Source: an uncultured delta proteobacterium (lineage in GTDB: Bacteria; Desulfobacterota; Binatia; UBA9968). Taken from it: a stretch of 64,000 nt of DNA. The notes below the pieces were generated by a model. That model did no database searches and was not told the DNA's origin. It saw only the letters and a list, made by a program, of their open reading frames with translations. Shown one piece after another: positions 7,937 through 58,463 of the stretch (position 1 is its first letter; every line of letters begins with the position of its first letter). The translations under genes and the position numbers were made by a program. The DNA is taken from assembly GCA_963745035.1 (NCBI GenBank), contig CAVUVW010000014.1:512001-576000 (forward strand). Reading direction: 5' to 3'.

Positions 7937-7956
7937 TATTGGACTAAGGTCCAATA
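7937..7956 (+). promoter_or_regulatory. Dyad operator copy 1: TATTGGAC-TAAG-GTCCAATA
   Basis: Perfect 8-bp inverted repeat; TACAGT -10-like hexamer at 7978; upstream of the single-domain response regulator operon. Confidence 0.8.
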
Positions 7957-7995
7957 TACGCGCACTTTTGCTCTCGCTACAGTCCTGTTCACTCG

Positions 7996-8436
7996 ATGGT
8001 GTTGCTTATCAATCATTTCGGTCACGGCCCAGAGGGTGTCGCGTTGTATAAATCCAAACCGTTGATTGCCATCGTGGACGACGATGAATCGGTCTGCCGC
8101 GCAATACGGCGACTGGTGCGGTCACTGGCCATGGATGCAGAGATATTCAGCTCAGGGCGCCAGTTTCTCGATCTTCTTCATGCCATGCCCTCGTTCCAAC
8201 CTGACTGTGTGATTCTCGACGTGCAAATGCCTGGGATGAACGGTTTGGAGGTGCAAGAGCTGCTCTCCGAGAGCGGCAAGAAGTTTCCTTTGATCTTTAT
8301 TACAGCGCACGATGAGGTCGGCGTGCGGGAAAAGGCTCTCAATGGCGGAGCACTGGCCTTCCTGCGCAAACCCTTTGATGACGAGTTGCTCGTAAAGACT
8401 CTGAGTGAGGGGCTCAAACGCGCTGCGAGGAATTAA
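7996..8436 (+). CDS. Single-domain response regulator (receiver only)
   Basis: IAIVDDDE, ILDVQMPGMNG, FITAH, FLRKPF; likely true start is TTG at 8044. Confidence 0.9.
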   Translation: MVLLINHFGHGPEGVALYKSKPLIAIVDDDESVCRAIRRLVRSLAMDAEIFSSGRQFLDLLHAMPSFQPDCVILDVQMPGMNGLEVQELLSESGKKFPLIFITAHDEVGVREKALNGGALAFLRKPFDDELLVKTLSEGLKRAARN

Positions 8437-8460
8437 TGAGTTCAAACAAGGGAAAAGTCG

Positions 8461-10134
8461 GTGACACAGTTTAAAGGTTTCTTTCGGTCCGGGTCTCGGT
8501 TCATGATCGGGGTGCTGGCGATTCTGGCGCTGCAACATGGAATGACTTTCGCCGCGCAGCACGCATATGAGCAGCGGGAAGTCCTCAGCGCTTCGAAAAT
8601 CCTACCGCCGGATCTTCTGAGCGGCCCGAATCATCGGGTCGAAGAAAGAGTTTACAACGACGGCTATCTTAATACCTATCGAATCGGCTCCAAGTTCGGT
8701 ACTTTCGTCGCCGTATCAACGCCAATGCTGCGCAAGCGCATCGGTGAGATCAATGCACTGGTTCGCATGGAGCAGATCCAGAACACGAAGGAATTTACCT
8801 CAGCGCTCAAGGAAGCAGGTACCGACACCTTGGTCGGCTTCAAAAATCTCGTCACCGAGCCCGGCGATACTGTAAAGGGCGCTGTTTCGGGATTAGGCGT
8901 GGCCTTTCGCCGGGCGGGCGACGCCCTCACAGGTCCAAAGCGGAGCGATGCCGAAGACAGCAAAATCAAAGACCTGATCGGGTTCTCTAAAACCAAGCGC
9001 GAATACGCCTACCAACTCGGGGTCGATGCCTATACCGATAACGAACAAGTCCAAGACCGGCTCGACCAGATTTCCTGGGCCGGATATGCCGGCGGGATTA
9101 CCTGGGCGGGCGCCATGGCCGCAGTGCCGGGGGGCGCCGGCTTGGCGATAACGATCTCGGGAACTCACCACCTGTTAAACGAGGTTTTTCGCACCACGCC
9201 TCCAGTCGATCTGCGCCGAATGAATGGCGAAAAACTCAAGGCCATGGCCGTGCATCCGGAAGTCGCTGATGCCTTTTTGAACAATTCCTTCTATTCACCG
9301 CGATACCAGACGCTGCTGGTCCATGCGCTGGAGGAAATGAAAGGCGTCGGCGATCGGGCGACCTTCATCCGATTGGCGGCGTCCAGTGTAAATAGGGACA
9401 TCGCGTTTTTCCGCCAGCGACAGGCTGAAACGTACGCGGGCTTTCATAAAGCGGTAGCTCCGGTTGCAGCATTTATCGACTTGGGTGGATTTGCCGCCGT
9501 GCGAACCACAAAGAACGAAGTGGTCTTCAGCGTACCACTGGATCATCTCGTCTGGACTGAAGACATGGCGAAATTATTGACCGCCGCGGACGCTCGCGTC
9601 ACTCAATTAAACCGTCCGGCCCGCAAACAATTATGGATCACTGGAACAACGAGTACGCGGGCAAAAAAGGAGCTCGAAGCTCGAGGCTGGCAGCTGCACG
9701 AGCGGGCGGAACAGCGGTTGCTCAGTTGGTCCGAAGAGTATCCGAACTATCAGAAGCCGGAGGAAAGAGTCCCGGACGCTCTCGTCAAACTGAACTTTAA
9801 GTCTGTCGGCGTCGGTGTCGGTGGCAGCTCCGGCGATGGCATTCTTTCGTACCAGGGCAAAGACTATCCACTGGGGATCTCCGGAATCAATATTGCCGAT
9901 CTTGGCGTATCGCAGTTTCAGGGTGCGGGCAAAGTGTACGAACTCAAGAACGTCGCCGATTTCTCCGGTAACTATGCCGCGGCGCAGGCCGCCTTCGCGG
10001 TTCGGGGAGGACAGAGTTCTTTGTCCATGAAAAATGGCAAAGGCGTAACCATTGTAATTTTGCAGGATGAGGGCAAAGAATCGGGAACGCGCTTAAGCCT
10101 CGGCCCATCCGGTATCACTTTTAAGCTAAAGTAA
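8461..10134 (+). CDS. Exported hypothetical protein with a C-terminal DUF1134/EipA-like beta domain
   Basis: Signal peptide; C-terminal VGVGGSSGDGILSYQGKDYPLGISG...GKVYELKNVADFSGNY...SMKNGKGVTI resembles small DUF1134-like proteins. Confidence 0.6.
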   Translation: MTQFKGFFRSGSRFMIGVLAILALQHGMTFAAQHAYEQREVLSASKILPPDLLSGPNHRVEERVYNDGYLNTYRIGSKFGTFVAVSTPMLRKRIGEINALVRMEQIQNTKEFTSALKEAGTDTLVGFKNLVTEPGDTVKGAVSGLGVAFRRAGDALTGPKRSDAEDSKIKDLIGFSKTKREYAYQLGVDAYTDNEQVQDRLDQISWAGYAGGITWAGAMAAVPGGAGLAITISGTHHLLNEVFRTTPPVDLRRMNGEKLKAMAVHPEVADAFLNNSFYSPRYQTLLVHALEEMKGVGDRATFIRLAASSVNRDIAFFRQRQAETYAGFHKAVAPVAAFIDLGGFAAVRTTKNEVVFSVPLDHLVWTEDMAKLLTAADARVTQLNRPARKQLWITGTTSTRAKKELEARGWQLHERAEQRLLSWSEEYPNYQKPEERVPDALVKLNFKSVGVGVGGSSGDGILSYQGKDYPLGISGINIADLGVSQFQGAGKVYELKNVADFSGNYAAAQAAFAVRGGQSSLSMKNGKGVTIVILQDEGKESGTRLSLGPSGITFKLK

Positions 10135-10160
10135 AAGGTAGAGCTCGCGAGGAATTTACA

Positions 10161-11528
10161 ATGAATCGAAATATTGACGGGCGAATCTTTATCTGGCTGA
10201 TGATTGGCCTTTTGTCTGCGCCCCCGCAGGTGTTCTCTCAGCAGAAGGCAGCCGCTCCGGAGAAGACAGCCGCTGCGGTTTTTTCGCAGGAAGAATTGGA
10301 TCAAACCCTGGCGCCCATCGCGCTCCACCCGGACTCGCTCGTCGCGCAGATTTTAATGGCGTCCACATATCCACTGGAGGTGGTGCAGGCCGACCGCTGG
10401 GCAAAGCAAAACGCCAGTCTCAAGGGGGATGCTCTGACCAAGGCGCTCGAGTCGCAGAACTGGGACCCGAGCGTAAAATCGCTGGTGAACTTTCCCCAGG
10501 TACTCACCATGATGAGCGAGAAGCTCGACTGGACTCAGAAGCTCGGCGACGCGTTTTTGGCCGACCAGAAAAAAGTCTTGGATACCATCCAGAGTTTGCG
10601 CGCCAAAGCGCAGGCTTCCGGCAATCTCAAAACGACCAAAGAGCAGACCGTCATCGTCGAAGAAAAGATCATCAAGATCGAGCCGGCACAACCCCAAACG
10701 GTTTACGTGCCGACCTATAACCCGACCGTGGTTTACGGCGCGTGGCCGTACCCGGCCTCCCCGCCTTATTACTACTATCCGCCGGGATATGTAGCCAGCT
10801 CCGTGCTTGCGTTCGGCGCCGGTGTCGCCATGGGGGCCGCGTGGGGTTATGCGTGGGGCGGCTGCAACTGGGGCGGCGGAGACGTCGACATCGATGTCGA
10901 TCGGAACACGAATATCAATAACAACATCAACCGAGACCAGGCCAAGCAGAAATTACAGGAGAGGGGACAGGCTAATCAAAGGGGTCAGGGCAAATGGCAG
11001 CACAACCCCGAGCACCGCAAAGGAGTTTCGTATCGCGACCAGGGAACGGCGCAGAAATTCAATCGGGAGAGCACCAACCAGGCGATTCAGTCCAGGGAAC
11101 AGTTTCGTGGACGGTCCGAGCAAGGACAGCAGGAATTGGCTCGCGGAGGCGGCGATCGCGCCGCTGCCGGCGATCGCGGTGGCCAGGGACCAGGCGGTGA
11201 CCGCGGCGGAAGCGATCGCGCTGCTGGCGGTGACCGCGGCGGCGCCGGTGGTGACCGCGGTGGGGGCGATCGCGCTGCGATTAGCGATCGAGGCGGCCAG
11301 GGAGTCGGCGGTGATCGAGGCGGGTCGGGCGGTGATCGAGGCGGTGCAAGTCAGCTCGGTGGTTCCGGCAGCCGCGGCGGCGCATTCGAGGGTGTCGGGG
11401 GTGGGGGCAGCTCAGCCCGCAGCGCGAGCGAGCGCGGCAGTGCCAGTCGCGGCGGCGGTGGCGGAGGGCGTGGGGGCGGTGGCGGCGGAGGCCGGGGGGG
11501 TGGTGGTGGCGGAGGCCGGCGCCGCTAG
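10161..11528 (+). CDS. DUF3300 domain-containing exported protein with Gly/Arg-rich tail
   Basis: ELDQTLAPIALHPDSLVAQILMASTYPLEVVQA, WDPSVKSL, VYVPTYNPTVVYGAW. Confidence 0.85.
   Translation: MNRNIDGRIFIWLMIGLLSAPPQVFSQQKAAAPEKTAAAVFSQEELDQTLAPIALHPDSLVAQILMASTYPLEVVQADRWAKQNASLKGDALTKALESQNWDPSVKSLVNFPQVLTMMSEKLDWTQKLGDAFLADQKKVLDTIQSLRAKAQASGNLKTTKEQTVIVEEKIIKIEPAQPQTVYVPTYNPTVVYGAWPYPASPPYYYYPPGYVASSVLAFGAGVAMGAAWGYAWGGCNWGGGDVDIDVDRNTNINNNINRDQAKQKLQERGQANQRGQGKWQHNPEHRKGVSYRDQGTAQKFNRESTNQAIQSREQFRGRSEQGQQELARGGGDRAAAGDRGGQGPGGDRGGSDRAAGGDRGGAGGDRGGGDRAAISDRGGQGVGGDRGGSGGDRGGASQLGGSGSRGGAFEGVGGGGSSARSASERGSASRGGGGGGRGGGGGGGRGGGGGGGRRR
11148..11525 (+). repeat. Coding low-complexity repeats (GGDRG/GGDRA units, then RGGGGGGG)
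   Basis: Repeated ggcgatcgcg/ggtgaccgcggc/ggtgatcgaggc units inside the DUF3300 gene. Confidence 0.85.
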
Positions 11529-11605
11529 TTTGAGCCGGAAGAGCGGAATCAGAAGGTGGAACTGTGGAAAATTTGAATGTTGCTCTTGGTTTTACCGGAG
11601 GAGAA

Positions 11606-12553
11606 ATGAAGTTTGCGAACGCAAAATCGCAAAGCCGCGCCGATCAATGGTTGCTCGCGAGCGTCGTGTTCGTTACAGTGATGTTGAATTGCAGTCTGTC
11701 GTTTGCGGCGGCAGCCCCGCAAAAAACCTTCAGCTCGGCTGAAGAAGCGGTCAAAGCCGCAATAGCCGCGGCGAAGAAGGGTGACGATAAAGAAGTTAGC
11801 GCAATCTTCGGTCCCGGCTCCCAGGAACTGCTGCATTCAGGGGACGCCATTGCGGATAAGCAGAGGCGAGCCGAATTTCTCAAGGCCTACGACGAAAGAA
11901 ACCGGCTGGTCACCGAAGGGGAGCATACCATCCTTGTGGTAGGCAAAACCGATTGGCCGCTGCCGATTCCGTTAGTCAAGAAAGGCAACGGCTGGATCTT
12001 CGATGCTGCCAAAGGAAAAGAAGAAGTACTCAATCGCCGCATCGGGCAAAACGAGCTCAGTGCGATTCAGGTTACATTAGCCTACGTCGATGCACAGCGG
12101 GAGTATGCGAGGAAGGATCGCGACCGTGATGGGCTGTTGGAATACGCCCAGAGGCCTCGCAGCGAATCGGGCAAGCGGAATGGGCTGTACTGGCCAGTCA
12201 AGAGTGGAGAAGAGCAGAGCCCCCTAGGGCCACTGGCTGCCCGCGCCGTCAAAGAAGGATATAAGGCAAGCGATAAACCGGTCCCCTTCCATGGCTATTA
12301 TTACCGCATTCTTACGGCGCAAGGGAAAAACGCGCCCGGTGGAGCCTACAGCTATCTCGTGAAAGGCAGCATGATCGGCGGCTTTGCTCTGGTGGCCTAT
12401 CCGGCGGAGTACCGCAATTCCGGAGTGATGACTTTTATCGTCAACCACGACGGCAAAGTGTTTCAGAAGGATCTCGGAAAGAACACCGCTGCGGTCGCCT
12501 CCGCGATGAAAGAATACAATCCGGACCAGAGCTGGGTGGAGGTGCAACAGTGA
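11606..12553 (+). CDS. DUF2950 family exported protein
   Basis: WPLPIPLVK, RRIGQNEL, YVDAQREYA, GLYWP, PFHGYYYRIL, SGVMTFIVN; RBS GGAGGAG; usual partner of DUF3300. Confidence 0.88.
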   Translation: MKFANAKSQSRADQWLLASVVFVTVMLNCSLSFAAAAPQKTFSSAEEAVKAAIAAAKKGDDKEVSAIFGPGSQELLHSGDAIADKQRRAEFLKAYDERNRLVTEGEHTILVVGKTDWPLPIPLVKKGNGWIFDAAKGKEEVLNRRIGQNELSAIQVTLAYVDAQREYARKDRDRDGLLEYAQRPRSESGKRNGLYWPVKSGEEQSPLGPLAARAVKEGYKASDKPVPFHGYYYRILTAQGKNAPGGAYSYLVKGSMIGGFALVAYPAEYRNSGVMTFIVNHDGKVFQKDLGKNTAAVASAMKEYNPDQSWVEVQQ

Positions 12554-12772
12554 TTTGAAACGCAGAGCGATGTGATCTAAGCTACGACCTGGCTCGGACG
12601 AGAGCGGAGAATACAACGAGCTATGTCGCGAGCCGGAAAAAGGTCGATCCCAGTCAGCTTGTCGTGATGTCTTACGGTGAGAGCGCCGAATCGAAATTTT
12701 TGTTTACCGCGATCCCGTGACTGCCGGATCAGCTGAGCAAGCGAAGGACGAGCGCTGACATACGGGTGATCT

Positions 12773-14323
12773 ATGCTAGTCTTTTTGATCCACATTCGAG
12801 ATCCGCAATTCTACGCGCTTCCGACCGCGAAGCGGGCAAAGAACGGCAATATCCGTGTCATGGGTTTCCCGCCGATCGGGATAATGTCGCTCTCCGCGGT
12901 ACTCAAACGCGCCGGGCATGATTGCATAATGTTCGACCAGGCCAACCCCGAAACGCCCAATGAAGCGATCATCGAGCGCATACGGCGCGACAAACCTGAT
13001 TTGGTCGGATTGAGCTTTTTGAGCACGACAAGTTATCCCTACGCAAAGATCCTTGCGCGAAAAATCCGAGCCGTGGACAGCCGCGTGCGCCTGGCATTCG
13101 GGGGGGTCTTTGCCACATTGAACGCGGAGCAAGTGAAGCTGCAGTGCCCCGAAGTCGATTTCGTATGCCGTGGCGACGGTGAACAACTGATTCTCGATCT
13201 GCTTGACCGCTTGGATGATCCTGCGGACGTGCCCGGTGTGACCTGGGCCAAAGACGGTCGACCAATTCATAACCCCAATCGAGAGCTGGATCGCAGGCTC
13301 GATCAGTGGCCGTTTCCAGATCGCGAGAGTCTGGCTTTGGACTTTGTCGAATCCATGCCCCTCGACGTCCCTGCCGTGCTGTCGATGGAGCGCTTCACCA
13401 CGATGCAGACCTCCCGCGGCTGTCCCTGGCCGTGCGTATTTTGCGACATTCCGATCTTCAACGAAGGGAAATGGCGCTCCCGAAGCGCGCAGCACGTGGT
13501 CGACGAGTTCAAGCACCTGCAGTCGCTCGGTTATGGCTCGGTCTATTTTGTGGACGATCATTTTTTGCTCCAGCCCAAACGAATCGAAGCAATCTGCAAA
13601 GGCATCAGGGACAACGGCATCTCGATTCAATGGGGTTGCGAAGGCCGGGTTGATTCAACGGCGCAGCATCTATTTCCGGCAATGGCCCAAGCGCACTGCC
13701 GCACCGTGATGTTCGGCGTGGAAAGCGGCAGTCAAAAAGTGCTCGACCGCTTGAAGAAGGATCAAACCCTGGAACAGGTGGAGGGCGCGGTCAATAAAGC
13801 CAAACAAGCAGGCATCGAGATCGTGCACGGGTTCTTTGTGGTCGGCAGTCCCGACGAGACAGTCGAGGACATGCGCGCGACATTCGACTTTGCCGCGAAG
13901 CTACGACTCGATACCTTCGGATTCAACCGGCTGTGTGTTTACCGCGGCACCCCGCTATGGAAAGAGTACGTTGCCCGTGGTTTGGTTGATGATGCCACGG
14001 ATTGGTACAAGTATTTTAAGTGCTCCGAGATCGATCCTACGTGCCTGCCGGGGGGAGTGATCAATACAGAACGGATTGCCGGCTTACGCCGGCTATTCCG
14101 CTACAAAGTGACTCACCACACTCTGCAAACCTTTCGGCTCTTGCGACGCTTCTTGCGTTATATGCCGCTGCGGGACGTCGTCCATCTGATTATCAAACCG
14201 TTTCTCGGCCAGAAGCAGGGAGCGACGCGCAACGAGGTGCTTACGCGCGCCGTCGAACATGGCGCTTTCAAGGATGCCGCTGCGGAAATGACAACCATCC
14301 CTGACGATCGCTTGAAGGTTTGA
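12773..14323 (+). CDS. Cobalamin-binding radical SAM protein
   Basis: N-terminal B12-binding region (PPIGIMSLSAVLK, GGVFAT, GDGE); SRGCPWPCVFC CxxxCxxC; GVESGSQKVL. Confidence 0.9.
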   Translation: MLVFLIHIRDPQFYALPTAKRAKNGNIRVMGFPPIGIMSLSAVLKRAGHDCIMFDQANPETPNEAIIERIRRDKPDLVGLSFLSTTSYPYAKILARKIRAVDSRVRLAFGGVFATLNAEQVKLQCPEVDFVCRGDGEQLILDLLDRLDDPADVPGVTWAKDGRPIHNPNRELDRRLDQWPFPDRESLALDFVESMPLDVPAVLSMERFTTMQTSRGCPWPCVFCDIPIFNEGKWRSRSAQHVVDEFKHLQSLGYGSVYFVDDHFLLQPKRIEAICKGIRDNGISIQWGCEGRVDSTAQHLFPAMAQAHCRTVMFGVESGSQKVLDRLKKDQTLEQVEGAVNKAKQAGIEIVHGFFVVGSPDETVEDMRATFDFAAKLRLDTFGFNRLCVYRGTPLWKEYVARGLVDDATDWYKYFKCSEIDPTCLPGGVINTERIAGLRRLFRYKVTHHTLQTFRLLRRFLRYMPLRDVVHLIIKPFLGQKQGATRNEVLTRAVEHGAFKDAAAEMTTIPDDRLKV

Positions 14324-14565
14324 GTCATTTGCCGTTCAAAGTGGCCGCTGATGCGTTGTAATTTCAAGCCTCTTCGTTTGACTACCGTGTCTCGATAAGC
14401 CTTCCAGACTTGATCACTGAGACATTTCGGTTTCTTTGTTTGCCGGCGATCGTCGATCGAAGATCGCCGGCCTGTAATCATCGATTCGTACTGTTGCCAT
14501 AAGCTGGGCTCTGAGATTATGATCGGCTACTTCCGGCACAAATCCTTGTCGCAAGTCATCTAACA

Positions 14566-16641
14566 ATGGGAAGAGGGACAAAATTGATCGAGTCGCCGCT
14601 GGTTCCACGGTACCAAGAAGGCATATTGATTAGAGGGAATATTCCCGTAGCGCTTCGTCATGCGTTCGCCGTGCTGTTGGTCTGTACCGGCTACTATGCC
14701 GGAACCTTAATTGCCCAATCGCTTAGATTCCCGAACTCTCATCTATCGCTCCTGTGGCCGCCTACGGCAATCGTCTTGGCAGCATTGCTGCTCGCGCCGC
14801 CACGACTCTGGTGGATTTATCTCGTCGCCGTTTCCCCCGTGCATATTTTCGTGCAACTGCAGGACGGTGTGCCGGAGTTGGGGATATTGAGCCAGCTGAT
14901 CGGCAACTTCGGTCAGGCGGTCGTTGCCGCGCTGGGTGTGCGCTATTTCGTCGGAGACCAACGACAGCTCGACAGTTTTCGCGCCGTCGTAATCTTTACG
15001 CTATGTGCAGCTCTTCTCGCTCCTTTTCTCGTGTCGGCAATCGCCGTATATCTCTACGTGCTGAGCGGGTGGGAGCATGACTATTGGTACGCGTGGCGTG
15101 CACGGGTCTTGTCCAATTCCCTTTCGACGCTGACGATCGTGCCACCTATACTGACGGCGTTCGGTGCCGTAGCTGCGCAGATGGAAAGCCCTCCACCGCG
15201 GCGCTATCTGGAATTGGTTCTCCTTATGACCGGGCTGGTTGTCGTGGGATTTTTGGCCGGTAGGCAAGCGGCTCCCACATTGATTTACGCACCGCTTCCG
15301 TTCCTTCTGTGGGCAGCCGTGCGATTCGAGATCGGCACCTTGTGTCTCGCCCTGTTGCTTGCCGCCTATATCGTTTTTGTGAATACCTCGGGCGGTCATG
15401 GGCCCTTCGCGATGCAGTCAGCTGCCGAGAATGCCTTGTCAGTGCAGCTGTTCCTCATTACGATTTCCGTCCCGTTGATCTACCTGGCGGCGCTGACCAG
15501 CGAACGACGTGAAAAAGAGCAGGCGCTAGGCCGGAGCGAGGCTCGCTACCGGGCGTTGGTGATGACGAGCGCGGAAGTGGTTTGGCGCGCGAACGCACGG
15601 GGAGAGGTTTTCTTTGTTACCCCGAGTTGGCAACAACTCACAGGGCAGAGCGACGAAGAAATGCGCAAATTCGGTTGGCTTCAAGCCCTTCATCCCGACG
15701 ACCGAGAGTCGAACGCGCGTTTGTGGCAGCAAGCGATGAAGAAAAAACGCGTGTTCGAGAATGAGTTTAGGGTCCGCACTCATAGCGGGAGTTACCGGCA
15801 TTTTCACGTTCAAGCGGTGCCGATTGTGGCGCCGGACGGCACTGTGCAAGAGTGGGTGGGAGCGAACACCGATATCACCGACAGAAAGGAAGCTGCATTA
15901 GCGGCTCAGCGGCACCGCGACGAACTTGCCCATGTGTCGCGCATCTCGACGATGGGAGAACTGGCGGCATCCCTGGCGCATGAGCTAAACCAGCCGTTAA
16001 CGGCCATCCTCAGTAACGCCCAGGCTGCCCAGCGCTTGTTAGCGATCGCTCCATCCGATCTCGAAGAGGTGCGTGAGATTCTGAAGGATATCGTCTATGA
16101 CGACAATCGCGCCGGCGAGGTCATCCATCGGCTGCGTGCCCTGGTGAGAAAAGAACATCTCGAGTTTGCGCCGCTCGTTCTCGCCAATGTGGTCAACGAC
16201 GTCGTGCTGCTGCTCCGCAGCGATGCCATTCTGCACAACGTTCGCATCTTGGTCGAAATCAACGCCGATCTAGCGCTCGTGCGCGGCGACCGGATCCAGT
16301 TGCAGCAAGTGGTTCTGAATCTGCTGTTGAACGCCTTTGACGCCATGAAGGACAATCCAGTGCACGAACGCGAGGTTGTCGTGCGTGGGGGATTGGACGG
16401 GACGAACTCGGTAAAAGTCGCGGTCCAAGATCGGGGGATCGGTCTGGATAACGAAAAGCAAAAGGCCGACAAAATATTTGAGCCTTTTTATACGACCAAG
16501 AAAGACGGATTGGGAATGGGGCTTTCCATCAGCCGCTCTATCATCGAGGCTCACGGAGGGCAGTTGTGGGCGGAGAACAATCCACAGCGCGGCGCAACGT
16601 TATATTTTACGGTGCCGATAGCGAAGTCAGAAGCGCTATGA
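14566..16641 (+). CDS. MASE1-PAS sensor histidine kinase (FixL-like kinase core)
   Basis: Multi-TM N-terminus with LWPPTAIVLAALL, one PAS, LAHELNQPL, GLGMGLSISRSII; kinase core closely resembles 3370. Confidence 0.9.
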   Translation: MGRGTKLIESPLVPRYQEGILIRGNIPVALRHAFAVLLVCTGYYAGTLIAQSLRFPNSHLSLLWPPTAIVLAALLLAPPRLWWIYLVAVSPVHIFVQLQDGVPELGILSQLIGNFGQAVVAALGVRYFVGDQRQLDSFRAVVIFTLCAALLAPFLVSAIAVYLYVLSGWEHDYWYAWRARVLSNSLSTLTIVPPILTAFGAVAAQMESPPPRRYLELVLLMTGLVVVGFLAGRQAAPTLIYAPLPFLLWAAVRFEIGTLCLALLLAAYIVFVNTSGGHGPFAMQSAAENALSVQLFLITISVPLIYLAALTSERREKEQALGRSEARYRALVMTSAEVVWRANARGEVFFVTPSWQQLTGQSDEEMRKFGWLQALHPDDRESNARLWQQAMKKKRVFENEFRVRTHSGSYRHFHVQAVPIVAPDGTVQEWVGANTDITDRKEAALAAQRHRDELAHVSRISTMGELAASLAHELNQPLTAILSNAQAAQRLLAIAPSDLEEVREILKDIVYDDNRAGEVIHRLRALVRKEHLEFAPLVLANVVNDVVLLLRSDAILHNVRILVEINADLALVRGDRIQLQQVVLNLLLNAFDAMKDNPVHEREVVVRGGLDGTNSVKVAVQDRGIGLDNEKQKADKIFEPFYTTKKDGLGMGLSISRSIIEAHGGQLWAENNPQRGATLYFTVPIAKSEAL

Positions 16642-16993: not shown

Positions 16994-17013
16994 AGTTGGA
17001 CCAAAGTCCAATA
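16994..17013 (+). promoter_or_regulatory. Dyad operator copy 2: AGTTGGAC-CAAA-GTCCAATA
   Basis: Same motif; TGA-TAAAAA extended -10-like at 17032-17040; upstream of the sORF-patatin genes. Confidence 0.8.
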
Positions 17014-17101
17014 CACAGCGTATCGGCTCTTTGATAAAAACCGCGGCTAGCGGGGTGATTACGAAAACGACCATCGTAAATTTTTGCAGGAGGAGTTGCG
17101 T

Positions 17102-17194
17102 ATGAAACCACTAATTCTCGCGGTCATCGTTATGATGCTTTCAAGCTCTACTGTCGCGCAAGGAAACAATTCTACAGACAGGCCCGCTTTATAG
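17102..17194 (+). CDS. 30-aa small ORF with signal-peptide character (or remnant of a secreted protein)
   Basis: Strong RBS AGGAGGAG; MKPLILAVIVMMLSSSTVAQGNNSTDRPAL*. Confidence 0.45.
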   Translation: MKPLILAVIVMMLSSSTVAQGNNSTDRPAL

Positions 17195-17203: not shown

Positions 17204-18466
17204 ATGACAATAGGAACTCGATCAGTGCTTCTCTCTAACCTTTTGCGCTATTCGGCATGTGTCCGTCGTACGATTTCACTGAAGGCCGTTTCAGCTCTCG
17301 CCGCGGGGCTCGTGCTGACCGGTTGTGGGACTGCCATACAGCGCTCGGACGTTGAGCGGCAGAATCTCCTGAAACTGCGCAGCGCGAGCGACGAACAGTC
17401 CATCGTGGTTGCCCGGAGACTGTTCGCTCGATTGCTGCAACGCACCAAGGCCGAGTACGACCGGCGCGCCGCAGCAGGGCAGCCGCCGCCGGTGATCGAT
17501 ATTCTGATTGTCTCGGGCGGAGGTGACTGGGGGGCGTTCGGAGCGGGATTTCTCAAGGGGTGGCAGAAGGTGCCGGCCCAACACCCGCTGGCGAAGCCTG
17601 AGTTCGACGCTGTAACCGGAGTAAGCACTGGCGCGTTGATCGCACCATTCGCTTTCCTGGGCGACGAGCAGTCGATCGATCAGATCGTCAACCTCTATCG
17701 CAACCCGGAGCCGGACTGGGTGAAGAACCGCGGGTTTCTTTATTTTTTGCCCGACAATATTTCTTTCGCCGAAGTGCCGGGGCTCGAGCGCGAGATGCGC
17801 AAACACATCACCTTGGACATGGCGCGTCGTCTCACGAAGGCGGGAAGCGACGGTCGACTGCTGGCGGTCAACACGACCAACCTTGACGATGCCTCGTCGC
17901 GGGTATTCGACCTGGTGGCGGAAGCCCAGCGCGCCTCTGACTCCGGCCAGCTTGACCGCATTCACAATGTCATGCTCGCATCCGCGGGAATTCCGGGTGC
18001 TTTCCCGTTCCGTATGATCGACGACGAGCTCTACGTCGACGGCGGCGTTACCGGAAACATCATCTATGGCGGGCGTGTAACGGAAGAGGATAGCTTGCCG
18101 GCCGCGTGGCAGAAGACCTATCCGAACCTGCCCATCCCGAAGATACGCTATTGGGTAATTTTCAACAATCAGTTCCGCCCAGTACCGGAGGTGGTGGCAC
18201 CGAAATGGCCGGCGGTCATTCAACGAAGCCTTGAAACGTCCACACGCGCGGCGACGGCGACCGCGGTGCGGCATCTTTACGCTATGGCCGAGATCTCGCG
18301 GCTCAGGCGCAAGGCCGAAGTGGAAGTGCGTATCGTTTCGATCCCTGGCGATTGGTTACCTCCGATACCCGGGATTTTTATCAAAGAGAGTATGAACAAT
18401 CTCGCGGACCTCGGCGAGAAGATGGGCGCCGATCCATCCAGCTGGAGCACGGAGCCGCCGCAGTAG
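17204..18466 (+). CDS. Patatin-like phospholipase, lipoprotein
   Basis: Lipobox LTGC; SGGGDWGAFGAG, GVSTG nucleophile elbow, DGG motif. Confidence 0.9.
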   Translation: MTIGTRSVLLSNLLRYSACVRRTISLKAVSALAAGLVLTGCGTAIQRSDVERQNLLKLRSASDEQSIVVARRLFARLLQRTKAEYDRRAAAGQPPPVIDILIVSGGGDWGAFGAGFLKGWQKVPAQHPLAKPEFDAVTGVSTGALIAPFAFLGDEQSIDQIVNLYRNPEPDWVKNRGFLYFLPDNISFAEVPGLEREMRKHITLDMARRLTKAGSDGRLLAVNTTNLDDASSRVFDLVAEAQRASDSGQLDRIHNVMLASAGIPGAFPFRMIDDELYVDGGVTGNIIYGGRVTEEDSLPAAWQKTYPNLPIPKIRYWVIFNNQFRPVPEVVAPKWPAVIQRSLETSTRAATATAVRHLYAMAEISRLRRKAEVEVRIVSIPGDWLPPIPGIFIKESMNNLADLGEKMGADPSSWSTEPPQ

Positions 18467-21756: not shown

Positions 21757-21984
21757 ATGGCACAGCAAGAAACAAAGAAACCGAATATTTTGGTGATCTG
21801 GGGCGATGACATAGGGCAGTCGAATTTGAGTTGTTTCACCAAGGGCATGATGGGGTACCGCACGCCCAACATCGACCGAATCGCCAACGAGGGAATGGTC
21901 TTTACCGACTATTACGCCGAACAGAGTTGTACGGCCGGCCGCGCCGCTTTCATCAAGCCTTTCGGACAATGCGCCCGTCTGTGA
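21757..21984 (+). pseudogene. Truncated arylsulfatase (N-terminal ~67 aa only)
   Basis: [13 protein letters not shown]...[11 protein letters not shown]...[12 protein letters not shown], then divergence and stop. Confidence 0.85.
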
Positions 21985-31538: not shown

Positions 31539-31558
31539 AGTTGGACCAAAGTCCAATA
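31539..31558 (+). promoter_or_regulatory. Dyad operator copy 3: AGTTGGAC-CAAA-GTCCAATA
   Basis: Same motif; TGA-TAAAAG at 31577-31585; downstream flank resembles copy 2. Confidence 0.8.
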
Positions 31559-42507: not shown

Positions 42508-42600
42508 ATCGTTTTTCTCGCGTTCTGCCAGTCTCGCTCTTGGTCTCTCTCAGTTACTTGCTTATGGCCGCTTCGCTACCAGCCCCCTTAGCCCTCCAAC

Positions 42601-42620
42601 AATTGGACCTTGGTCCAATA
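42601..42620 (-). promoter_or_regulatory. Dyad operator copy 4 (minus strand TATTGGAC-CAAG-GTCCAATT)
   Basis: Same motif in reverse orientation; TGG-TAGCGA follows on the minus strand, pointing at the mlaA fusion. Confidence 0.75.
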
Positions 42621-42765: not shown

Positions 42766-42785
42766 TATTGGACCAAGGTCCAATA
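42766..42785 (+). promoter_or_regulatory. Dyad operator copy 5: TATTGGAC-CAAG-GTCCAATA
   Basis: Perfect dyad; TGA-TAATTT at 42803-42811; upstream of the DUF3604 operon. Confidence 0.8.
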
Positions 42786-42998
42786 GTCCTGCAATTCATT
42801 CCTGATAATTTGCCCCCGGCGGCGATCCGTCGAGCGACGAGATGGTTGCACAGCTATGGCAAATCTCAGCGCTTTCGGCTTTTGGCCCGAGTAGACCGAG
42901 ACGCAGCATTTTTCGGAGCAGCGTACGGCTGGAAGTTCGGAGCCATCGCTATGAGTGCAGTTGCAAACAGCGTCAGCAAGCAAAGGATGGCAAAAACA

Positions 42999-45023: not shown

Positions 45024-45383
45024 GTGAGTCAGAGCGGACTAGAGAGCTTCGGCGCGTACCAAAAAGCGCGACAATTGTTTGATCTCGTCGCCGCGGACAT
45101 GGAGACAGTCAAGACAAATCCTCTCTGCTATCGGCTGGTATCACAACAAATGGGCAGTGCGGATTCCATCTGCGCCAACATCGAAGAAGGTTATGGAAGG
45201 TTGAGCCGGGTTGAGTATGTCCGCTTCCTCGATATCGCACGGGGCTCAGCTCGCGAAACCCGCGGGCGCTATGAGCGGATGAAGCATTGGCTAAACGAGA
45301 ATGTAGTCCGTCAACGGATCGAATTGCTCGATGAGATCATCGGCATATTGACCAGCTCTATTGAAAGGATGAGACGAAGGTGA
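45024..45383 (+). CDS. Four helix bundle protein (23S rRNA IVP/TIGR02436-like)
   Basis: AYQKARQL, QQMGSADSICANIEEGYGR, RFLDIARGSARET. Confidence 0.88.
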   Translation: MSQSGLESFGAYQKARQLFDLVAADMETVKTNPLCYRLVSQQMGSADSICANIEEGYGRLSRVEYVRFLDIARGSARETRGRYERMKHWLNENVVRQRIELLDEIIGILTSSIERMRRR

Positions 45384-46378
45384 AAGGCCACGAAATCGTT
45401 TCGAAAAACGACCTAGGAGACGCCAACAGCACGACAGCATCACTCTTCCCCTCGACCCTCGACACTCGACACTCTTCACCCGACACCCGACCCTCGTCCC
45501 TCCGGCGATTTCTCCGCGAGCCGCTGCTGCATTTCCTGTTGCTCGGCGCATTGATCTTCGTGGCGTTCAAATTCATTTCTCGCGAGACCAGCGAACCGGG
45601 AAAGATTCTCATCACTCAGGGCCGCATCGAATCGCTCGAAACCGCGTTCAGCCGCACCTGGCGGCGGCCGCCGAGCGCAAGTGAATTGGAAGGCTTGCTT
45701 CGCGACTACGTTCGCGAAGAAGTTTTCGCGCGCGAAGCGGTCGCCCTCGGACTCGACAAGGACGACACGATCATCCGCCGGCGGCTGCGCCAGAAACTGG
45801 AGTTCATCTCCGAAGACGTCGCCGCCTACGCCGAGCCCACCGATGAGCAATTGAACGCGTATTTGAAAGCACACCCCGACACGTTTCGCGGCGATCGCCG
45901 GTTTAGCTTTAGCCAGGTGTATCTCGACCCGCAGCGGCGCGGCGCCAATCTCAGCCGCGATGCGGCGCAAGTACTCGCGCAGCTCGGTCGTCCTGGCAGC
46001 AAAGTTGATCCTGCAACGCTCGGCGACTCTCTCCTGCTCGAGAACGAGTTCAAGGCGCTGCCGGCGAGCGAAGTGGTGAAACAATTCGGCGAGAAGTTTG
46101 CCGCGTCGCTCGGTGAGATGACAACGGGACAATGGCGCGGGCCGATCGAGTCCGGCTTCGGCGTGCATCTGGTTTTGTTAAGCGAGCGCACCGAGGGCTC
46201 GCTGCCGGCGCTGGAAGACGTCCGCGCCGCGGTGCGGCGCGAATGGACCAACGCGCGCCGGATGGAAGCGAACGAAAAGTTCTATCAAACCCTGCTGCAA
46301 CGCTACATCGTGACCATCGAGCGGCCGGAAGTTGCGAAAAGCGCGGGCGGGAAACAAGTCGCCGAGGCGCGACAATGA
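45380..46378 (+). CDS. PpiC-type peptidyl-prolyl isomerase-like protein
   Basis: LREPLLHFLLLG, GLDKDDTIIRRRLRQK, WRGPIESGFGVHLV; typical DUF3604 neighbour. Confidence 0.85.
   Translation: MKGHEIVSKNDLGDANSTTASLFPSTLDTRHSSPDTRPSSLRRFLREPLLHFLLLGALIFVAFKFISRETSEPGKILITQGRIESLETAFSRTWRRPPSASELEGLLRDYVREEVFAREAVALGLDKDDTIIRRRLRQKLEFISEDVAAYAEPTDEQLNAYLKAHPDTFRGDRRFSFSQVYLDPQRRGANLSRDAAQVLAQLGRPGSKVDPATLGDSLLLENEFKALPASEVVKQFGEKFAASLGEMTTGQWRGPIESGFGVHLVLLSERTEGSLPALEDVRAAVRREWTNARRMEANEKFYQTLLQRYIVTIERPEVAKSAGGKQVAEARQ
45447..45502 (-). repeat. Eight in-register heptamers (GACCCTC/GACACTC), right arm, inverted relative to the left arm
   Basis: TCCCCTC GACCCTC GACACTC GACACTC TTCACCC GACACCC GACCCTC GTCCCTC. 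Confidence 0.85.
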
Positions 46379-46412
46379 ACAGAATCGGGGTGACACGAGT
46401 GTCGGGTGTCGA

Positions 46413-47453
46413 GTGTCGTACCGCGCTCTCGCATGTCGCACCCTTTGCTTACTTCTGTTTCTTTTTTCCGGATTTCCTCTGTTCGCGCACGAAGTGCGCC
46501 CGGCTTATCTGGAGCTGCGTCAGACCGGCGCCGAGACTTACGACATCTTGTGGAAAGTGCCCGGGCAGGGAGAAGATCTGCGCCTGGGACTTTACGTGCA
46601 ACTGCCGGAGAGCTGCTCGAACCTGACGCAACCGCGCGGCGCTTTCGCCGCCAACGCTTATACCGAGCGTTGGAGCGTCCAATGCTCGGGAGGCTTGAGC
46701 GGCGGCACGATCCGCATCGCCGGCCTCTCGGCGACAATGACCGACGTTTTGGTGCGCATCGAGCGAGTCGAGGGCTCGACCCAGATCACTCGCCTCACGC
46801 CGGCGACTTCCTCATTCGTCGTCGAAGCCGCCCCGAGCCGAATGGAAATCGTCCGTACCTATCTCATTCTCGGCATCGAGCACATTTTAACCGGCGTGGA
46901 CCATCTGCTGTTCGTGCTCGGCCTCCTACTGCTGGTGCGCGGATTCGGCCGGCTGGTCAAAACGGTGAGTGCATTTACCGTCGCGCACAGCGTCACCCTG
47001 GCCTTGGCGACGCTCGGCTTTGTTCATGTTCCCTCTCCGCCAGTGGAAGCGGTGATTGCCTTGAGCATCGTCTTTGTCGCCAAAGAAATTCTCCGCAGCC
47101 GCGGCAGGTCTTCGTCCTCCCAGCCCAGTCTGACGGAGCGCCAGCCGTGGCTCGTCGCATTCTCTTTCGGGTTGTTGCACGGGTTGGGATTCGCGGGCGG
47201 ATTGAGCGAGGTGGGATTACCGCAAGGACACATCCCGCTCGCGCTGCTGCTGTTCAGTATCGGCGTCGAGGTCGGCCATTTCGGTTTCATCGCGGCGGTG
47301 TTCGCATTGATGGCGCTCGGTCACCGAGCGATGCAATGGCTGCGCTTACCGCAAACATCGCTTCATCGATCCGCCGTGCTCCGACTGCTGCCGCCGTATG
47401 CGATTGGCGGCACGGCAATGTTCTGGCTGATTGAACGAATCGCGGCGTTTTGA
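46413..47453 (+). CDS. HupE/UreJ family membrane protein
   Basis: AHEVRPAYLEL, GIEHILTGVDHLLF, AFTVAHSVTL, FGLLHGLGFAG; start uncertain (GTG 46413). Confidence 0.88.
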   Translation: MSYRALACRTLCLLLFLFSGFPLFAHEVRPAYLELRQTGAETYDILWKVPGQGEDLRLGLYVQLPESCSNLTQPRGAFAANAYTERWSVQCSGGLSGGTIRIAGLSATMTDVLVRIERVEGSTQITRLTPATSSFVVEAAPSRMEIVRTYLILGIEHILTGVDHLLFVLGLLLLVRGFGRLVKTVSAFTVAHSVTLALATLGFVHVPSPPVEAVIALSIVFVAKEILRSRGRSSSSQPSLTERQPWLVAFSFGLLHGLGFAGGLSEVGLPQGHIPLALLLFSIGVEVGHFGFIAAVFALMALGHRAMQWLRLPQTSLHRSAVLRLLPPYAIGGTAMFWLIERIAAF

Positions 47454-55021: not shown

Positions 55022-55041
55022 TATTGGACTAAGGTCCAATA
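55022..55041 (+). promoter_or_regulatory. Dyad operator copy 6: TATTGGAC-TAAG-GTCCAATA
   Basis: Perfect 9-bp arms (55021-55042); TAGATA at 55063; upstream of an OprB porin. Confidence 0.8.
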
Positions 55042-55216
55042 TCCAGCTTTGCTGCACTTCGATAGATAACTTGCGTTTCTGGTCGGCAAAAACCATGGTC
55101 GGCAGCAGCGCGATGCATGTCCCCGACGCACGCCAGTGCACTTGCAAGCCACTCACCTCGCAGATTCATCGCTTAAATCCACAACGTACAAATCTCACAG
55201 ATTCGGAGCACCATTC

Positions 55217-56599
55217 ATGAAGAGAACTTCAACTGTCCTGACTGCGATATTTCTTCTAACACTTTCGATCGGTGCGCAGTGTCATGCGGCGGACGCGCCG
55301 ACTGCAAATCCCTACTCGGGAGATCTATGGACGCGCTCGACGCTCAGCGGCGACTGGTGGGGTTTTCGCAACCAGCTTGCTGAAAAAGGCGTCACCCTCG
55401 ACATGAGCCTGACTCAGGCCGCGCAAGGCATCGTTCATGGCGGCAAAGACACCGGCTGGCAGTACGGCGGCGGACGCGGCGACATCATCCTCAATCTGGA
55501 CACGCAGAAACTTGGTCTTTGGCCCGGCGGGTTCTTGAACGTGGAAGCGGAAGGCAACTTTATTCCGGACGATACTTTGCGCAAATCGATCAACGGCAGG
55601 ACCGGTGCACTCATGCCGGTGAATAGCAATCAGTCTTTTCCCACTGCCGGCGGGCGACAACTTCAATTTCCCCGCTTTGAATTTTACTCAATTTCTGTCG
55701 CCTTACTTCGGCTTGACTATCGGCAAATACGCCACCGTCACCTCCAATTCCGGCGACATGAATGACTTTGCCCATGGCAAAGGCGACACCCAGTTCATGA
55801 ACACCGCATTGAACTTCAATCCGATGATAGTCTGTGACCATGCCTTACTCCACATTGGGCACCGGGCGTGATCGTATTGCCGACCAAGGATCCCAAGCAG
55901 GCGATTGTGAGCTTTTTTGTAATGTCATCGACCGGCAAAGCCAGCACCAGCGGCTTCGATGACTTGAATGATGACAATTTGACGTTTGCCGGTGAGGGCC
56001 GCGTGAGGACCGACTTTTTCGGCCTCACCGGGCATCAGCTTTTAGGCGCGACTTATTCCAACCGGAAATTCACTTCGATCGACCAGAACGCACGCTTCAT
56101 ATTCGAGAACGGCGCATTTGAGGAGGAGAAAGGCTCTTGGAACGTTTACTACAACTTCGATCAGTATTTTTACGAACCGAAGAAAGGATCTGGCGAAGGG
56201 ATCGGAATTTTTGGCCGCTTCGGCGCTTCGGACGGTGATCCTAACTTCATGCATTTTTTCTACAGTCTGGGGATTGGCGGCAAAGGCGTTATCCCGAACC
56301 GTGAACGCGACCGTTACGGATTCGGTTTTTACTACATCGATGTCAAGAATCCGAAACTCCAGGGCCTATTTCAAACCACGAAGTTGTTGCGCGATGAGCA
56401 CGGGTTCGAGGCTTTCTACAATATCGCCATTACGCCGTGGCTGGAGCTCACACCGGATATCCAGGTCGTTCGAGGGGCGCAGAAAGAGAAGGTTACCATC
56501 GGCACCCGTCCCGGACCCTTGGGACTACCCTTCATCGCCAGCCGAAAAAGCATCGGGACGGCGACGGTCTTGGGTGTGAGATTGAAGATGATCTTCTAA
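55217..56599 (+). CDS. OprB-family carbohydrate-selective porin, frameshifted near 55650 and 55835-55865
   Basis: Signal peptide; TLSGDWWGFRNQLAEKGV, YYNFDQY, EAFYNIAITPWLELTPDIQV, terminal F. Confidence 0.85.
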
Positions 56600-56637: not shown

Positions 56638-56657
56638 TGTTGGACCAAAGTCCAATA
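56638..56657 (+). promoter_or_regulatory. Dyad operator copy 7: TGTTGGAC-CAAA-GTCCAATA
   Basis: Same motif; TGC-TAGACA at 56677-56685; 61 nt upstream of 56719. Confidence 0.8.
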
Positions 56658-56718
56658 TACGGCGGCGGCGCCGCGGTGCTAGACAGAGTCACGATAAACC
56701 ATTTAAAAGGAGAGAGAG

Positions 56719-57285
56719 ATGAAGAAAAATATTTTAGCAGTGTTGTCGGCAATGATGCTGATCGGCGGGATCAGTTGCGCTCAAAATAAAGAAGCCGCTA
56801 CGAGGCCCGGCGTTGTGACTGTCGATGTCGTTAAATTGAGCGGCATCGTGAAAGCGATCGATCGAGACAAAAAGATGGTGACCGTCGAGGGGTCGGGCGG
56901 CAGAACGGTTGTGATCGATGCCACGAACGCGAGAAACCTCGATCAGCTGAAGGTCGGCGATAAAGTCAATTTGACGTACACCGAAGAAGTAGCGCTTTTC
57001 GTGAGAAAGTCAGACGATCCCCCGAGCGTGACCGAATTGCAAAACGTGGAACTGGCCCCGAAGGGTGAAAAGCCGGGAGGTGTAATCACCAAGACGATCG
57101 AAGTGACCGGCAGCGTCGAATCCATTGACATGAATAATCGGACCGTCGCATTGAAGGGCCCGGCCGGAAATGTCCGGACATATAAGGTGGGTCCAGAGGT
57201 AAAGAGGTTAAACGAGGTAAAAATGGGCGATCAAGTCGTGCTGCGGGTTACCCAAGCCGTGGCGCTGTCGGTGGGGAACCCCTGA
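56719..57285 (+). CDS. Exported hypothetical protein with two OB-fold-like repeats
   Basis: RBS AAGGAG, signal or lipobox, internal repeat VKAID..KMVTVEG..LDQLKVGD / VESID..RTVALKG..LNEVKMGD. Confidence 0.8.
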   Translation: MKKNILAVLSAMMLIGGISCAQNKEAATRPGVVTVDVVKLSGIVKAIDRDKKMVTVEGSGGRTVVIDATNARNLDQLKVGDKVNLTYTEEVALFVRKSDDPPSVTELQNVELAPKGEKPGGVITKTIEVTGSVESIDMNNRTVALKGPAGNVRTYKVGPEVKRLNEVKMGDQVVLRVTQAVALSVGNP

Positions 57286-57349
57286 ATAAGAGCTCGAGCA
57301 AGAAAAAAATAATCGCCAGGCAAAGTTGACAGGAAGGCCCAGGGAGCGA

Positions 57350-57600
57350 GAAACTCCTCACCCCCCAGGCCTTCTTCTTGGCGCACTGATCGTCGCCCGA
57401 TTACTGGGAATTTGGCTGTCGAATCGCGGCTTCGTTCCTTTTCCGCGCGGGGGAAAGTCAATTAGAGCGACGACGGTGGCAAGCAAAGCTGAGTTTAAAA
57501 AGCTACTTGGTCAATGGCACAGGCCGGACGGCGGTTATGATTGGCGATCAAAAGTATCGCCGCCGATGGCTTGATTGGTGCGGGCTACTTCACTAAACAG
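57350..57600 (+). pseudogene. Remnant of a conserved hypothetical exported protein
   Basis: LLGQWHRPDGGY, frameshift, LAIKSIAADGLIGAGYF, then break. Confidence 0.45.
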
Positions 57601-57631
57601 CCTGATTAAGACGCACTGCTGTACTAAGTCG

Positions 57632-58345
57632 ATGCGTGCGGACACGTGCGTGTGGATTGTCCTGCTCCTGTTGCCCTACTGGTGCTTCTGGGCAAATTCT
57701 CAAGCCGCAGAAGTCGAAGAGCCTTTCAGGGTGATGATCCTGCGCAATACCAGCCAGTACCTGCCGGCGGGTATTCTTCAGGACCGTGGGATGCGCGAGG
57801 CCTTTGCTGCCAAGGGTACCCGCCACGTAGAGTTTTTCGTCGAGACAATGGACACGATGTGGTTTGATCGATCGGAGATCGAGCCAGAGTTCTTGTCGCT
57901 TTTCGAAAGAAGTACGGCAGCCGCAAAATAGATTTTCTCATGGCTGCGGGGGCGGACGGTTGGATGTTGCACAGCGACTTCGTGAGGTATTGCTGCGCGG
58001 GGTACCGATCGTCTTTTACAATGTCGCGGAAGATGCGCTGCGCGGACGCGCAATTCCACCGGATATTGCCGGCGTAGTCTTGCGGTTCGACTTACCTGGC
58101 ACCTTGAGCTTGGCGAAGCGTTTGCACCCGAATGCACGGCGCATCGTCGTTGTGAGCGGGACATCGCCCTATGATCGAAATTGGCTGCGCCGGGCGCGGG
58201 AAGCGCTGCGGTCGTACGAAGGCTGGCTCGAAGTCTCATACTGGTCGGGCCAACTGCTTCAACAGCTTCTCGAAAATCTCCGAAATATTTCTCTAACGTT
58301 CCCTCCGGAAGTCTCGATCTGGCGTAACTCGATAATTTCGCTAAG
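57632..58345 (+). pseudogene. Truncated, frameshifted periplasmic sensor domain paralogous to the N-terminus of 3370
   Basis: VEFFVETMD, GVPIVF, TLSLAKRLHPNARRIVVVSGTSPYDR vs TLELILRLQPDTRRIVVIGGSAEVDR. Confidence 0.7.
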
Positions 58346-58443
58346 ATGTCGCGGTTGGCGCAAAAAGCCGTAGCCGATTCAGGCCTTGCGCTTCTCGCCG
58401 AACATCTAAACCTCCCGTGCTCCTCAACTCTTCTGAACCGCCG

Positions 58444-58463
58444 TATTGGACCAAAGTCCAATA
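58444..58463 (+). promoter_or_regulatory. Dyad operator copy 8: TATTGGAC-CAAA-GTCCAATA
   Basis: Perfect dyad; TGA-TAGTTT at 58481-58489; upstream of the intact arylsulfatase. Confidence 0.8.

Follow-up and report, generated by a model that had tools for sequence, protein, structure and literature searches.

A recurrent 20-bp palindrome in an uncultured Binatia bacterium and the NarL/FixJ-family response regulator that probably binds it

What could connect a lone receiver protein, a patatin-like phospholipase, a porin and an arylsulfatase whose genes are preceded by the same short palindrome? The question is raised by a 64-kb stretch of DNA (positions 512,001 to 576,000 of contig CAVUVW010000014.1, assembly GCA_963745035.1) from an uncultured delta proteobacterium of the Binatia, in which a 20-bp dyad, hereafter the box, occurs in front of eight transcription units. 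This stretch, the window, is part of the source genome, and our window-wide statements on the box hold for it. A sequence-only reading of the window had proposed that one dimeric transcription factor co-regulates these units. The analysis supports this proposal and gives it a candidate: the box is probably bound by the response regulator of the NarL/FixJ family whose gene lies at 7224-7871 and whose phosphorylated dimer would activate the eight units. The box, a homologue of this regulator gene and, at a fixed distance, a -10-like hexamer recur together across phyla.

The box and its promoters

The core TTGGAC-N4-GTCCAA has eight exact matches in the window, starting at 7939, 16996, 31541, 42603, 42768, 55024, 56640 and 58446, and no match in 100 dinucleotide-preserving shuffles. 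The 20-mers that hold these cores (boxes 1 to 8, Table 1) begin exactly where the sequence-only reading had placed them. Their full consensus, (T/A)(A/G)TTGGAC-YWWR-GTCCAATA, is a 20-bp palindrome, and the central four bases fit YWWR in all eight. The 20-mer pattern of the earlier reading, allowed up to two mismatches, returns the same eight places (16 rows over both strands, 0.05 expected), and a 16-mer with YWWR at its centre, allowed up to three, reveals no degenerate copy in the window beyond the eight (1.19 expected by chance). Because eight exact copies stand against none in the shuffles, and none is added at up to three mismatches, the sites of the window are all-or-none. All eight are intergenic and lie upstream of gene starts, as had been claimed. 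A minus-strand open reading frame (ORF) of 241 amino acids (aa) runs across box 8, with a G + C content by codon position of 0.57/0.58/0.51 that is non-coding-like and differs from that of the sure genes. A long ORF (42540-44981) spanning boxes 4 and 5 was called with too early a start, as it has a twin-arginine translocation (TAT) signal at residues 166-186 and a Met-Ala-Lys start at 42987.

The box is also present in many other genomes. A set of 185,579 species-representative genomes was scanned with TTGGACYWWRGTCCAATA, in which 14 core bases are fixed. This sample, which is not a census, yielded at least 121 loci (L001-L121), 80 of them with 2-kb flanks and 41 with only about 300 bp per side; their taxon labels are those of the records. 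An A occupies the free position beside TTGGAC in 95 of the 123 distinct sites listed, the free dinucleotide is TA, completing the palindrome, in 41 of them (1/16 expected by chance), and the centre is AA or TT in 109. At least 13 assemblies harbor two or more sites, which by chance would be the case for essentially none of the genomes scanned. By our reading of ORF placement, five of the 125 site rows listed lie deep within an ORF of at least 250 aa, so that in these genomes too the motif does not occur regardless of gene starts. Since the free bases complete the palindrome, several assemblies hold multiple sites and few sites are found deep inside ORFs, these data show that most scan matches are true members of the family and not chance hits.

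The distance to a -10-like hexamer is fixed. Counted from the last base of the 20-mer on both sides of 122 listed sites (244 sides), the hexamer TANNNT starts at +22 in 40 cases or at +23 in 20, compared with about 2.5 per other offset. It is found at +21 to +24 in 66 of the 122 sites, in 64 of them on one side only, while six control offsets give 7 to 12 of 122. In the window, all eight boxes have a TAnnnN hexamer at +21 to +23 on the gene side, box 4 being read on the minus strand. The centre of the box lies 31.5-32.5 nt upstream of the hexamer; given this constant offset, it would be located near -43.5 if the hexamer is a -10 element. At 17 bp upstream of it, the sequence T-A-n-C-n-n makes a poor -35 hexamer, and a TG extension is present in 7 of the 64 one-sided sites. 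This arrangement has the sequence characteristics of a class II layout (site at -41.5 to -43.5, weak -35, fixed -10 distance), with start sites predicted from the hexamer. As a mechanism, a dimeric response regulator positioned at about -43 is textbook. The palindrome also has a polarity: the middle bases read AA toward the promoter in 53 and TT in 6 of the 64 one-sided listed sites (p = 1.8e-10), and AA promoter-ward in all eight boxes of the window once box 4 is turned. As the centre carries direction in this way (AA promoter-ward in 53 of the 59 AA/TT cases), the two monomers of the bound protein may be non-equivalent in their contact with RNA polymerase. In the window, the likeness of boxes 2 and 3 extends past the box (16994-17045 and 31539-31590): both are AG-prefixed, have a CAAA centre and carry CTCTTTGATAAAA at equal offset, suggesting that they may represent a duplicated promoter.

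That the dyad acts as a nucleic-acid structure (an RNA hairpin or terminator) or is a repeat element, rather than a protein site, is hardly credible. The dyad could indeed fold into a stem of 8 bp and a loop of 4 nt, and box 1 lies after a gene end. However, the flanks are unrelated: in the 140-bp contexts of the eight boxes the invariant columns are the box and one T, with a mean column identity of 45%. As the contexts align at the box only, a miniature inverted-repeat transposable element (MITE) or the end of an insertion sequence, both considered in the earlier reading, is ruled out, as is a repetitive extragenic palindromic element. No T-run follows the dyad (at least six T in the next 10 nt on 8 of the 244 sides, mean T fraction 0.22), which rules out an intrinsic terminator. 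Moreover, the fixed hexamer distance on one side puts the dyad upstream of the start site, and identical bases, beyond what mere pairing would require, are kept across phyla. Searched at gathering threshold, Rfam gives no RNA family over the whole window.

A response regulator gene beside the box

The gene that ends before box 1 codes for a response regulator with Pfam domains Response_reg (3.1e-26) and GerE (1.1e-20), the domain composition of the NarL/FixJ family. Among solved structures it is closest to StyR (1yio, E=6.4e-59), with FixJ (5xso) at 2e-43 and DevR (3c3w) at 2e-9. Full-length homologues (tblastn; 199-222 aa aligned, 42-64% identity) are present in 13 of the 121 loci listed, and in 10 of these 13 the box comes 8-149 nt after the end of the regulator gene, an arrangement also seen in the window. 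In L036 a lone receiver gene sits between regulator and box, and in L030 the box is upstream of an operon containing the regulator. The 13 loci belong to delta-proteobacterial/Desulfatiglandales, Bacillota, Rokubacteria, Verrucomicrobiae, Gamma- and Alphaproteobacteria and Acidobacteriota assemblies, plus one unclassified. The phospho-acceptor pocket (D51, D52, D96, K146) and the recognition helix EKT(I/V)KVHR are invariant in 14 aligned regulators. Clustering of the flanking ORFs shows that proteins with a receiver (REC) domain adjoin the box in 28 of the 121 loci and FixL-like kinases in 14, homologues of kinase 1 of the window (Table 1) preceding the regulator; no other recurrent DNA-binding family was found beside the box in these loci. 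The regulator itself belongs to a very populated group, as 7,992 of the 8,000 candidates scored in a protein search reach E<=1e-30. The closest homologues listed bear generic labels only: ‘FixJ family two-component response regulator’, ‘response regulator transcription factor’ and, twice, sigma factor.

Three characterised systems can be compared to this one. The first is DosR/DevR of Mycobacterium, with OsdR of Streptomyces. Here too a NarL-family dimer and a 20-bp palindrome are involved, and the core GGAC-N4-GTCC is common to both boxes. The half-site read by the DosR dimer is published as G4G5G6A7C8T9 (PMC3177182), in the same register as T4G5G6A7C8Y9 of our box, and the DosR box of the hspX scaffold used for cryo-electron microscopy has its centre at -43.5, the -35 being suboptimal (PMC13486717), in agreement with the position predicted here from the -10 distance. 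DosR controls a multi-operon regulon, as our regulator would. However, the latter is not an orthologue, being far closer to StyR than to DevR (see above); position 4 of the half-site is T and not G, and the flanks are A/T; each promoter has a single box, while Dev boxes are arranged in tandems of at least two (PMC3177182); the kinases harbor PAS and MASE1 domains and, by Pfam, no GAF in either; and the target genes are unlike.

The second comparison is with StyS/StyR and TodS/TodT, two-component systems for aromatic solvents, StyR being the closest solved relative of the regulator. StyR-type regulators read ATAAAC-N4-GTTTAT via Lys175, Val176 and His179 (PMC5874301), and StyR activates from the STY2 site at about -40 (PMC2442086). 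Both boxes are 6-N4-6 palindromes ending AC-N4-GT, and the regulator here retains Lys and Val in its recognition helix. At the position of His179 the window protein has Ala, the 14 aligned regulators all having a small residue there (11 have Ala, two Ser or Gly, and one Ala followed by His), and the half-site differs at positions 1, 3 and 4 (TTGGAC in place of ATAAAC), so that the box is not a StyR/TodT operator; the apparent loss of the His would be in line with the changed half-site. Furthermore, the kinases have one transmitter core and not the double-kinase build of TodS and StyS (PMC5874301), and the candidate targets code for envelope proteins, not for catabolic operons.

The third is the oxygen-responsive FixL/FixJ, whose models are the best NCBIfam matches for the regulator and for the kinase core, consistent with the ‘FixJ family’ labels of close homologues. 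Both proteins nevertheless remain below the equivalog cut-offs, with 215.3 bits for the regulator against FixJ NF006900 (cut-off 255) and 422 bits for kinase 1 against FixL NF041777 (cut-off 850), although the transmitter is FixL-like; the cut-off of TtrR is likewise unreached. Among solved structures, the last PAS domain of kinase 1 (residues 860-1010) matches only the BvgS PAS (3.1e-10) and 3ewk at E<=1e-3 and resembles the former rather than a FixL haem PAS. Oxygen sensing through a FixL haem PAS is unsupported for this BvgS-like domain, the other PAS domains not having been individually compared. In addition, the site in the fixK promoter of R. palustris, given as GTACGTAG (PMC13327599), is unlike the box, and no fixK or fixNOQP gene is present in the window. 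The box would therefore appear to act like a DosR or StyR box, yet the system belongs to none of the DosR, StyR and FixJ systems, its regulator being an orthologue neither of DosR nor of StyR or FixJ.

Proposed mode of action and its alternatives

In the reading that we prefer, one or both of the PAS kinases of the window would phosphorylate the regulator, which would dimerise and bind one box per promoter. Bound about 43.5 bp upstream of the start, the dimer could replace the poor -35 and recruit RNA polymerase (class II-type activation), and the eight transcription units would be switched on together. The lone receiver, the first and most conserved target, would probably serve the same phosphorelay as a phosphate sink or by modulating it through feedback, presumably recalling the receiver-type FixT of Caulobacter. 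The other targets would for the most part be exported proteins or proteins of the envelope or periplasm (DUF3300/DUF2950, patatin, MlaA-hydrolase, DUF3604-PpiC-HupE, OprB, CusF-like, sulfatase).

Several points weigh against this reading, in which every functional step is deduced from sequence. A strict TANNNT at +21 to +24 is missing in 56 of the 122 listed sites. With a fixed core and sampled loci, the scan cannot show core variation, the number of sites per genome or the co-occurrence of box and regulator. The genes downstream of the box are very mixed across taxa, and of the 58 ORFs scanned that come first after a box 28 are devoid of a Pfam family (58 of 62 were scanned, four shorter than 65 aa being dropped), and several targets in the window are broken genes. 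No REC gene is present in the fetched flank of 93 of the 121 loci listed, so that the link to the regulator rests on 28 loci; flanks without it are what would be expected of target promoters. Between the end of the AraC-type gene of the window and box 3 there are 125 nt, and L045 has a homologue about 1 kb away from a box. Finally, the position of the box would also suit a repressor occluding the -35.

The AraC-type gene and the flanks without REC gene could be explained if another factor, either this AraC-type protein or a CRP/FNR-type protein encoded elsewhere, bound the box and the regulator merely neighboured the targets. Half-sites of 5-6 bp, this spacing and a centre near -42 would also fit sites of the CRP/FNR type. 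We nevertheless find this quite improbable. No CRP/FNR-type gene is present among the 59 window ORFs scanned, and the AraC homologue appears in one of the listed loci against 13 for the regulator. The short distance between regulator end and box in 10 of these 13, in several phyla, would be hard to obtain by chance, and AraC-type proteins, as a family, rarely read perfect palindromes.

A repressor deserves more weight, though it is still unlikely. The box would then be an operator through which the same regulator or another dimeric protein (e.g. a TetR-type repressor) blocks the -35, the eight units being co-repressed. With a length of 20 bp and a centre near -43.5, the site extends from about -53 to -34 and reaches the -35 region, repressors commonly use perfect palindromes of high affinity, and StyR is also able to repress, from other sites (PMC2442086). 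On the other hand, the -35 is poorly conserved, as expected of activator-dependent promoters, and the nearest relatives that have been characterised are activators at this position (PMC2442086; PMC13486717). Moreover, the response regulator is the only DNA-binding protein recurring beside the box in the loci listed. Activation by the phosphorylated regulator thus remains the reading that we favor.

Target genes and the reach of the system

The genes following the eight boxes agree with the downstream units listed in the sequence-only reading (Table 1), and the orientation of box 4 toward the minus strand fits its assignment to the MlaA-hydrolase gene. Boxes 4 and 5 lie between the start of this gene and the probable start of the DUF3604 gene, forming a back-to-back pair that would serve divergent units. 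The genes at 8461..16641 downstream of the lone receiver probably form one operon with it. In lone receivers the acidic pocket, the phospho-acceptor Asp, the Thr and the Lys are conserved; read from the box in the direction of the promoter, 9 of the 58 first ORFs scanned encode such a receiver, and homologues with 67-69% identity to that of the window are found directly 3' of the box in L044, L046 and L068.

Table 1. Boxes, genes and other features of the window, in order of position
Feature	Position	Strand	Remarks
Mla-like ABC transport set (ATPase, MlaD, auxiliary lipoprotein)	54-2460	+	just upstream of kinase 1
Sensor histidine kinase 1, 1259 aa	3370..7149	+	periplasmic ABC_sub_bind-like domain, several PAS, HisKA, HATPase_c (Pfam)
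Response regulator, REC + GerE/LuxR helix-turn-helix	7224..7871	+	after kinase 1; probable ATG 7224, maximal ORF from 7110
Box 1	7937..7956	+	TATTGGACTAAGGTCCAATA; 65 nt past regulator stop (7871), before receiver gene; -10-like TACAGT 7978-7983
Lone receiver	8044..8436	+	first gene past box 1; ORF opens 7996, probable TTG 8044 behind GAGGG; Pfam Response_reg only
557-aa protein of unknown function	8461-10134	+	unit 1
DUF3300	10161-11528	+	unit 1 (Pfam)
DUF2950	11564-12553	+	unit 1 (Pfam)
B12-radical SAM	12773-14323	+	unit 1 (Pfam)
MASE1-PAS histidine kinase 2	14566-16641	+	unit 1 (Pfam)
Box 2	16994..17013	+	after kinase stop 16641; -10-like TGATAAAAA, hexamer 17035-17040
Short ORF, 30 aa, signal-peptide-like	17102-17194	+	between box 2 and patatin gene; strong Shine-Dalgarno site
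Patatin-like phospholipase	17204-18466	+	downstream of box 2 and short ORF
Sulfatase scrap	21757-21954		short
Sulfatase paralogue	25502-27141	+	split over two frames
PIN-domain and ribbon-helix-helix proteins	28946-29682	-	adjoining genes
AraC-type gene	30308-31414		before box 3
Box 3	31539..31558	+	after AraC-type gene stop 31414; -10-like TAAAAG 31580-31585
163-aa protein of unknown function	31931-32422	+	downstream of box 3
Sulfatase C-terminal scrap	32453-32638	+	short; after 163-aa protein, box 3 unit
MlaA-alpha/beta-hydrolase gene	42507-40599	-	box 4 target; frameshifted, frame change near codon 125
Box 4	42601..42620	-	centre CAAG on minus strand; TGGTAGCGA, hexamer 42578-42573
Box 5	42766..42785	+	TGATAATTT, hexamer 42806-42811
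DUF3604 gene	42987-44981	+	box 5 target; probable ATG 42987; Pfam
Four-helix-bundle protein	45024-45383	+	box 5 unit
PpiC-type isomerase	45380-46378	+	box 5 unit
HupE/UreJ	46332-47453	+	box 5 unit
Box 6	55022..55041	+	divergent gap; -10-like TAGATA 55063-55068
OprB-type porin gene	55136-56599	+	box 6 target; frame lost between ~55685 and ~55868
Box 7	56638..56657	+	TGCTAGACA, hexamer 56680-56685; before gene with clear Shine-Dalgarno site
CusF-like OB-fold protein	56719-57285	+	box 7 target
Box 8	58444..58463	+	TGATAGTTT, hexamer 58484-58489; before gene with clear Shine-Dalgarno site
Arylsulfatase	58561-60075	+	box 8 target; genes further downstream possibly too

Homologues of several of these genes adjoin boxes elsewhere: the 557-aa protein in L040 and L057, DUF3300 in L035 and L036, DUF2950 in L032 and L036, the B12-radical SAM protein in L064, and intact OprB genes in L040 and L074. 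A DUF3604 homologue with 73% identity follows the box in L078, another being present in L111, a CusF-like homologue follows it in L004, and a sulfatase with 64% identity in L023, where the box is itself preceded by the regulator. In the listed loci, the genes downstream of the box code for sulfatase, DUF3300, DUF3604, OmpA-family, HlyD/RND efflux and solute-binding proteins and NhaA, and further for carbonic anhydrase, superoxide dismutase, desulfoferrodoxin, glucose-6-phosphate dehydrogenase, aldolase and others. ‘Envelope and stress’ is thus only a loose theme of the targets, and no common physiological theme is established.

The genomic surroundings show some additional features. The broken frames of the MlaA-hydrolase gene, the porin gene (a single uninterrupted ORF in L040) and the split sulfatase paralogue, together with the two short sulfatase scraps, could reflect either real decay or assembly indel errors. 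A box was looked for in front of the decayed paralogue at 25502, and none was found at up to three mismatches; its Bryobacteraceae relative L061 has one. The short ORF between box 2 and the patatin gene does not have a gene-like G + C content by codon position and is a candidate gene only. The PIN-domain and ribbon-helix-helix pair is likely a VapBC-type toxin-antitoxin. Lipid-transport genes recur around the system, as the Mla-like set upstream of kinase 1, as MlaE after the box in L009 and as the MlaA-hydrolase gene after box 4. Genes for a HlyD-type adaptor and an AcrB-type pump recur beside boxes of Syntrophobacteraceae, Binatia and Chloroflexota assemblies (L014, L047, L048, L050, L075), and the window has no such target. 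In a delta-proteobacterial metagenome-assembled genome (L045 and L046, about 6 kb apart on one contig), a second box is located upstream of a homologue of the large kinase and beside the AraC-type homologue, an arrangement that would amount to autoregulation of the whole system. Kinase 1 of the window has no box in front.

The sequence-only reading did not recognise the motif as a described site, and in this respect it holds, as no published description was found. Judged by title or abstract start, the full texts among the matches listed for the motif concern primers, CRISPR and unrelated work only, and among the matches listed for DUF3300 and DUF2950 none is about such a box. The motif is however not exotic, since it follows the NarL/FixJ 6-N4-6 design and has the core and length and the predicted position of a DosR box. 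The regulon is apparently real, widespread and undescribed, and its mechanism a textbook one.

Over 1.6-1.8 kb, the DNA of the window shares 79% identity with a Bryobacteraceae contig and 75% with one of the Thermoanaerobaculia, which would point to Acidobacteriota. A megablast search of positions 3300-12600 against plasmids gave no match. It is conceivable, if still doubtful, that kinase, regulator, box and receiver constitute a portable cassette with a near-invariant box, spread over at least seven phylum-level groups (including Bacillota-labelled assemblies), that has captured lineage-specific envelope, transport and stress genes. If so, the box would mark a global regulon comparable to that of DosR and hitherto unstudied, in uncultured bacteria of soil and sediment. 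The system is present in Acidobacteriota, Desulfobacterota, Binatia, Rokubacteria, Burkholderiales and others, for which almost no experimental data on regulation exist. If the regulator binds the box, a two-component system that is very common but unnamed would have targets predictable from one short pattern, and DUF3300, DUF2950, DUF3604 and the 557-aa protein would be tied to one signal. Binding would also provide testable promoters in the culturable carriers Caballeronia, Paraburkholderia, Mesorhizobium and strain NaphS2.

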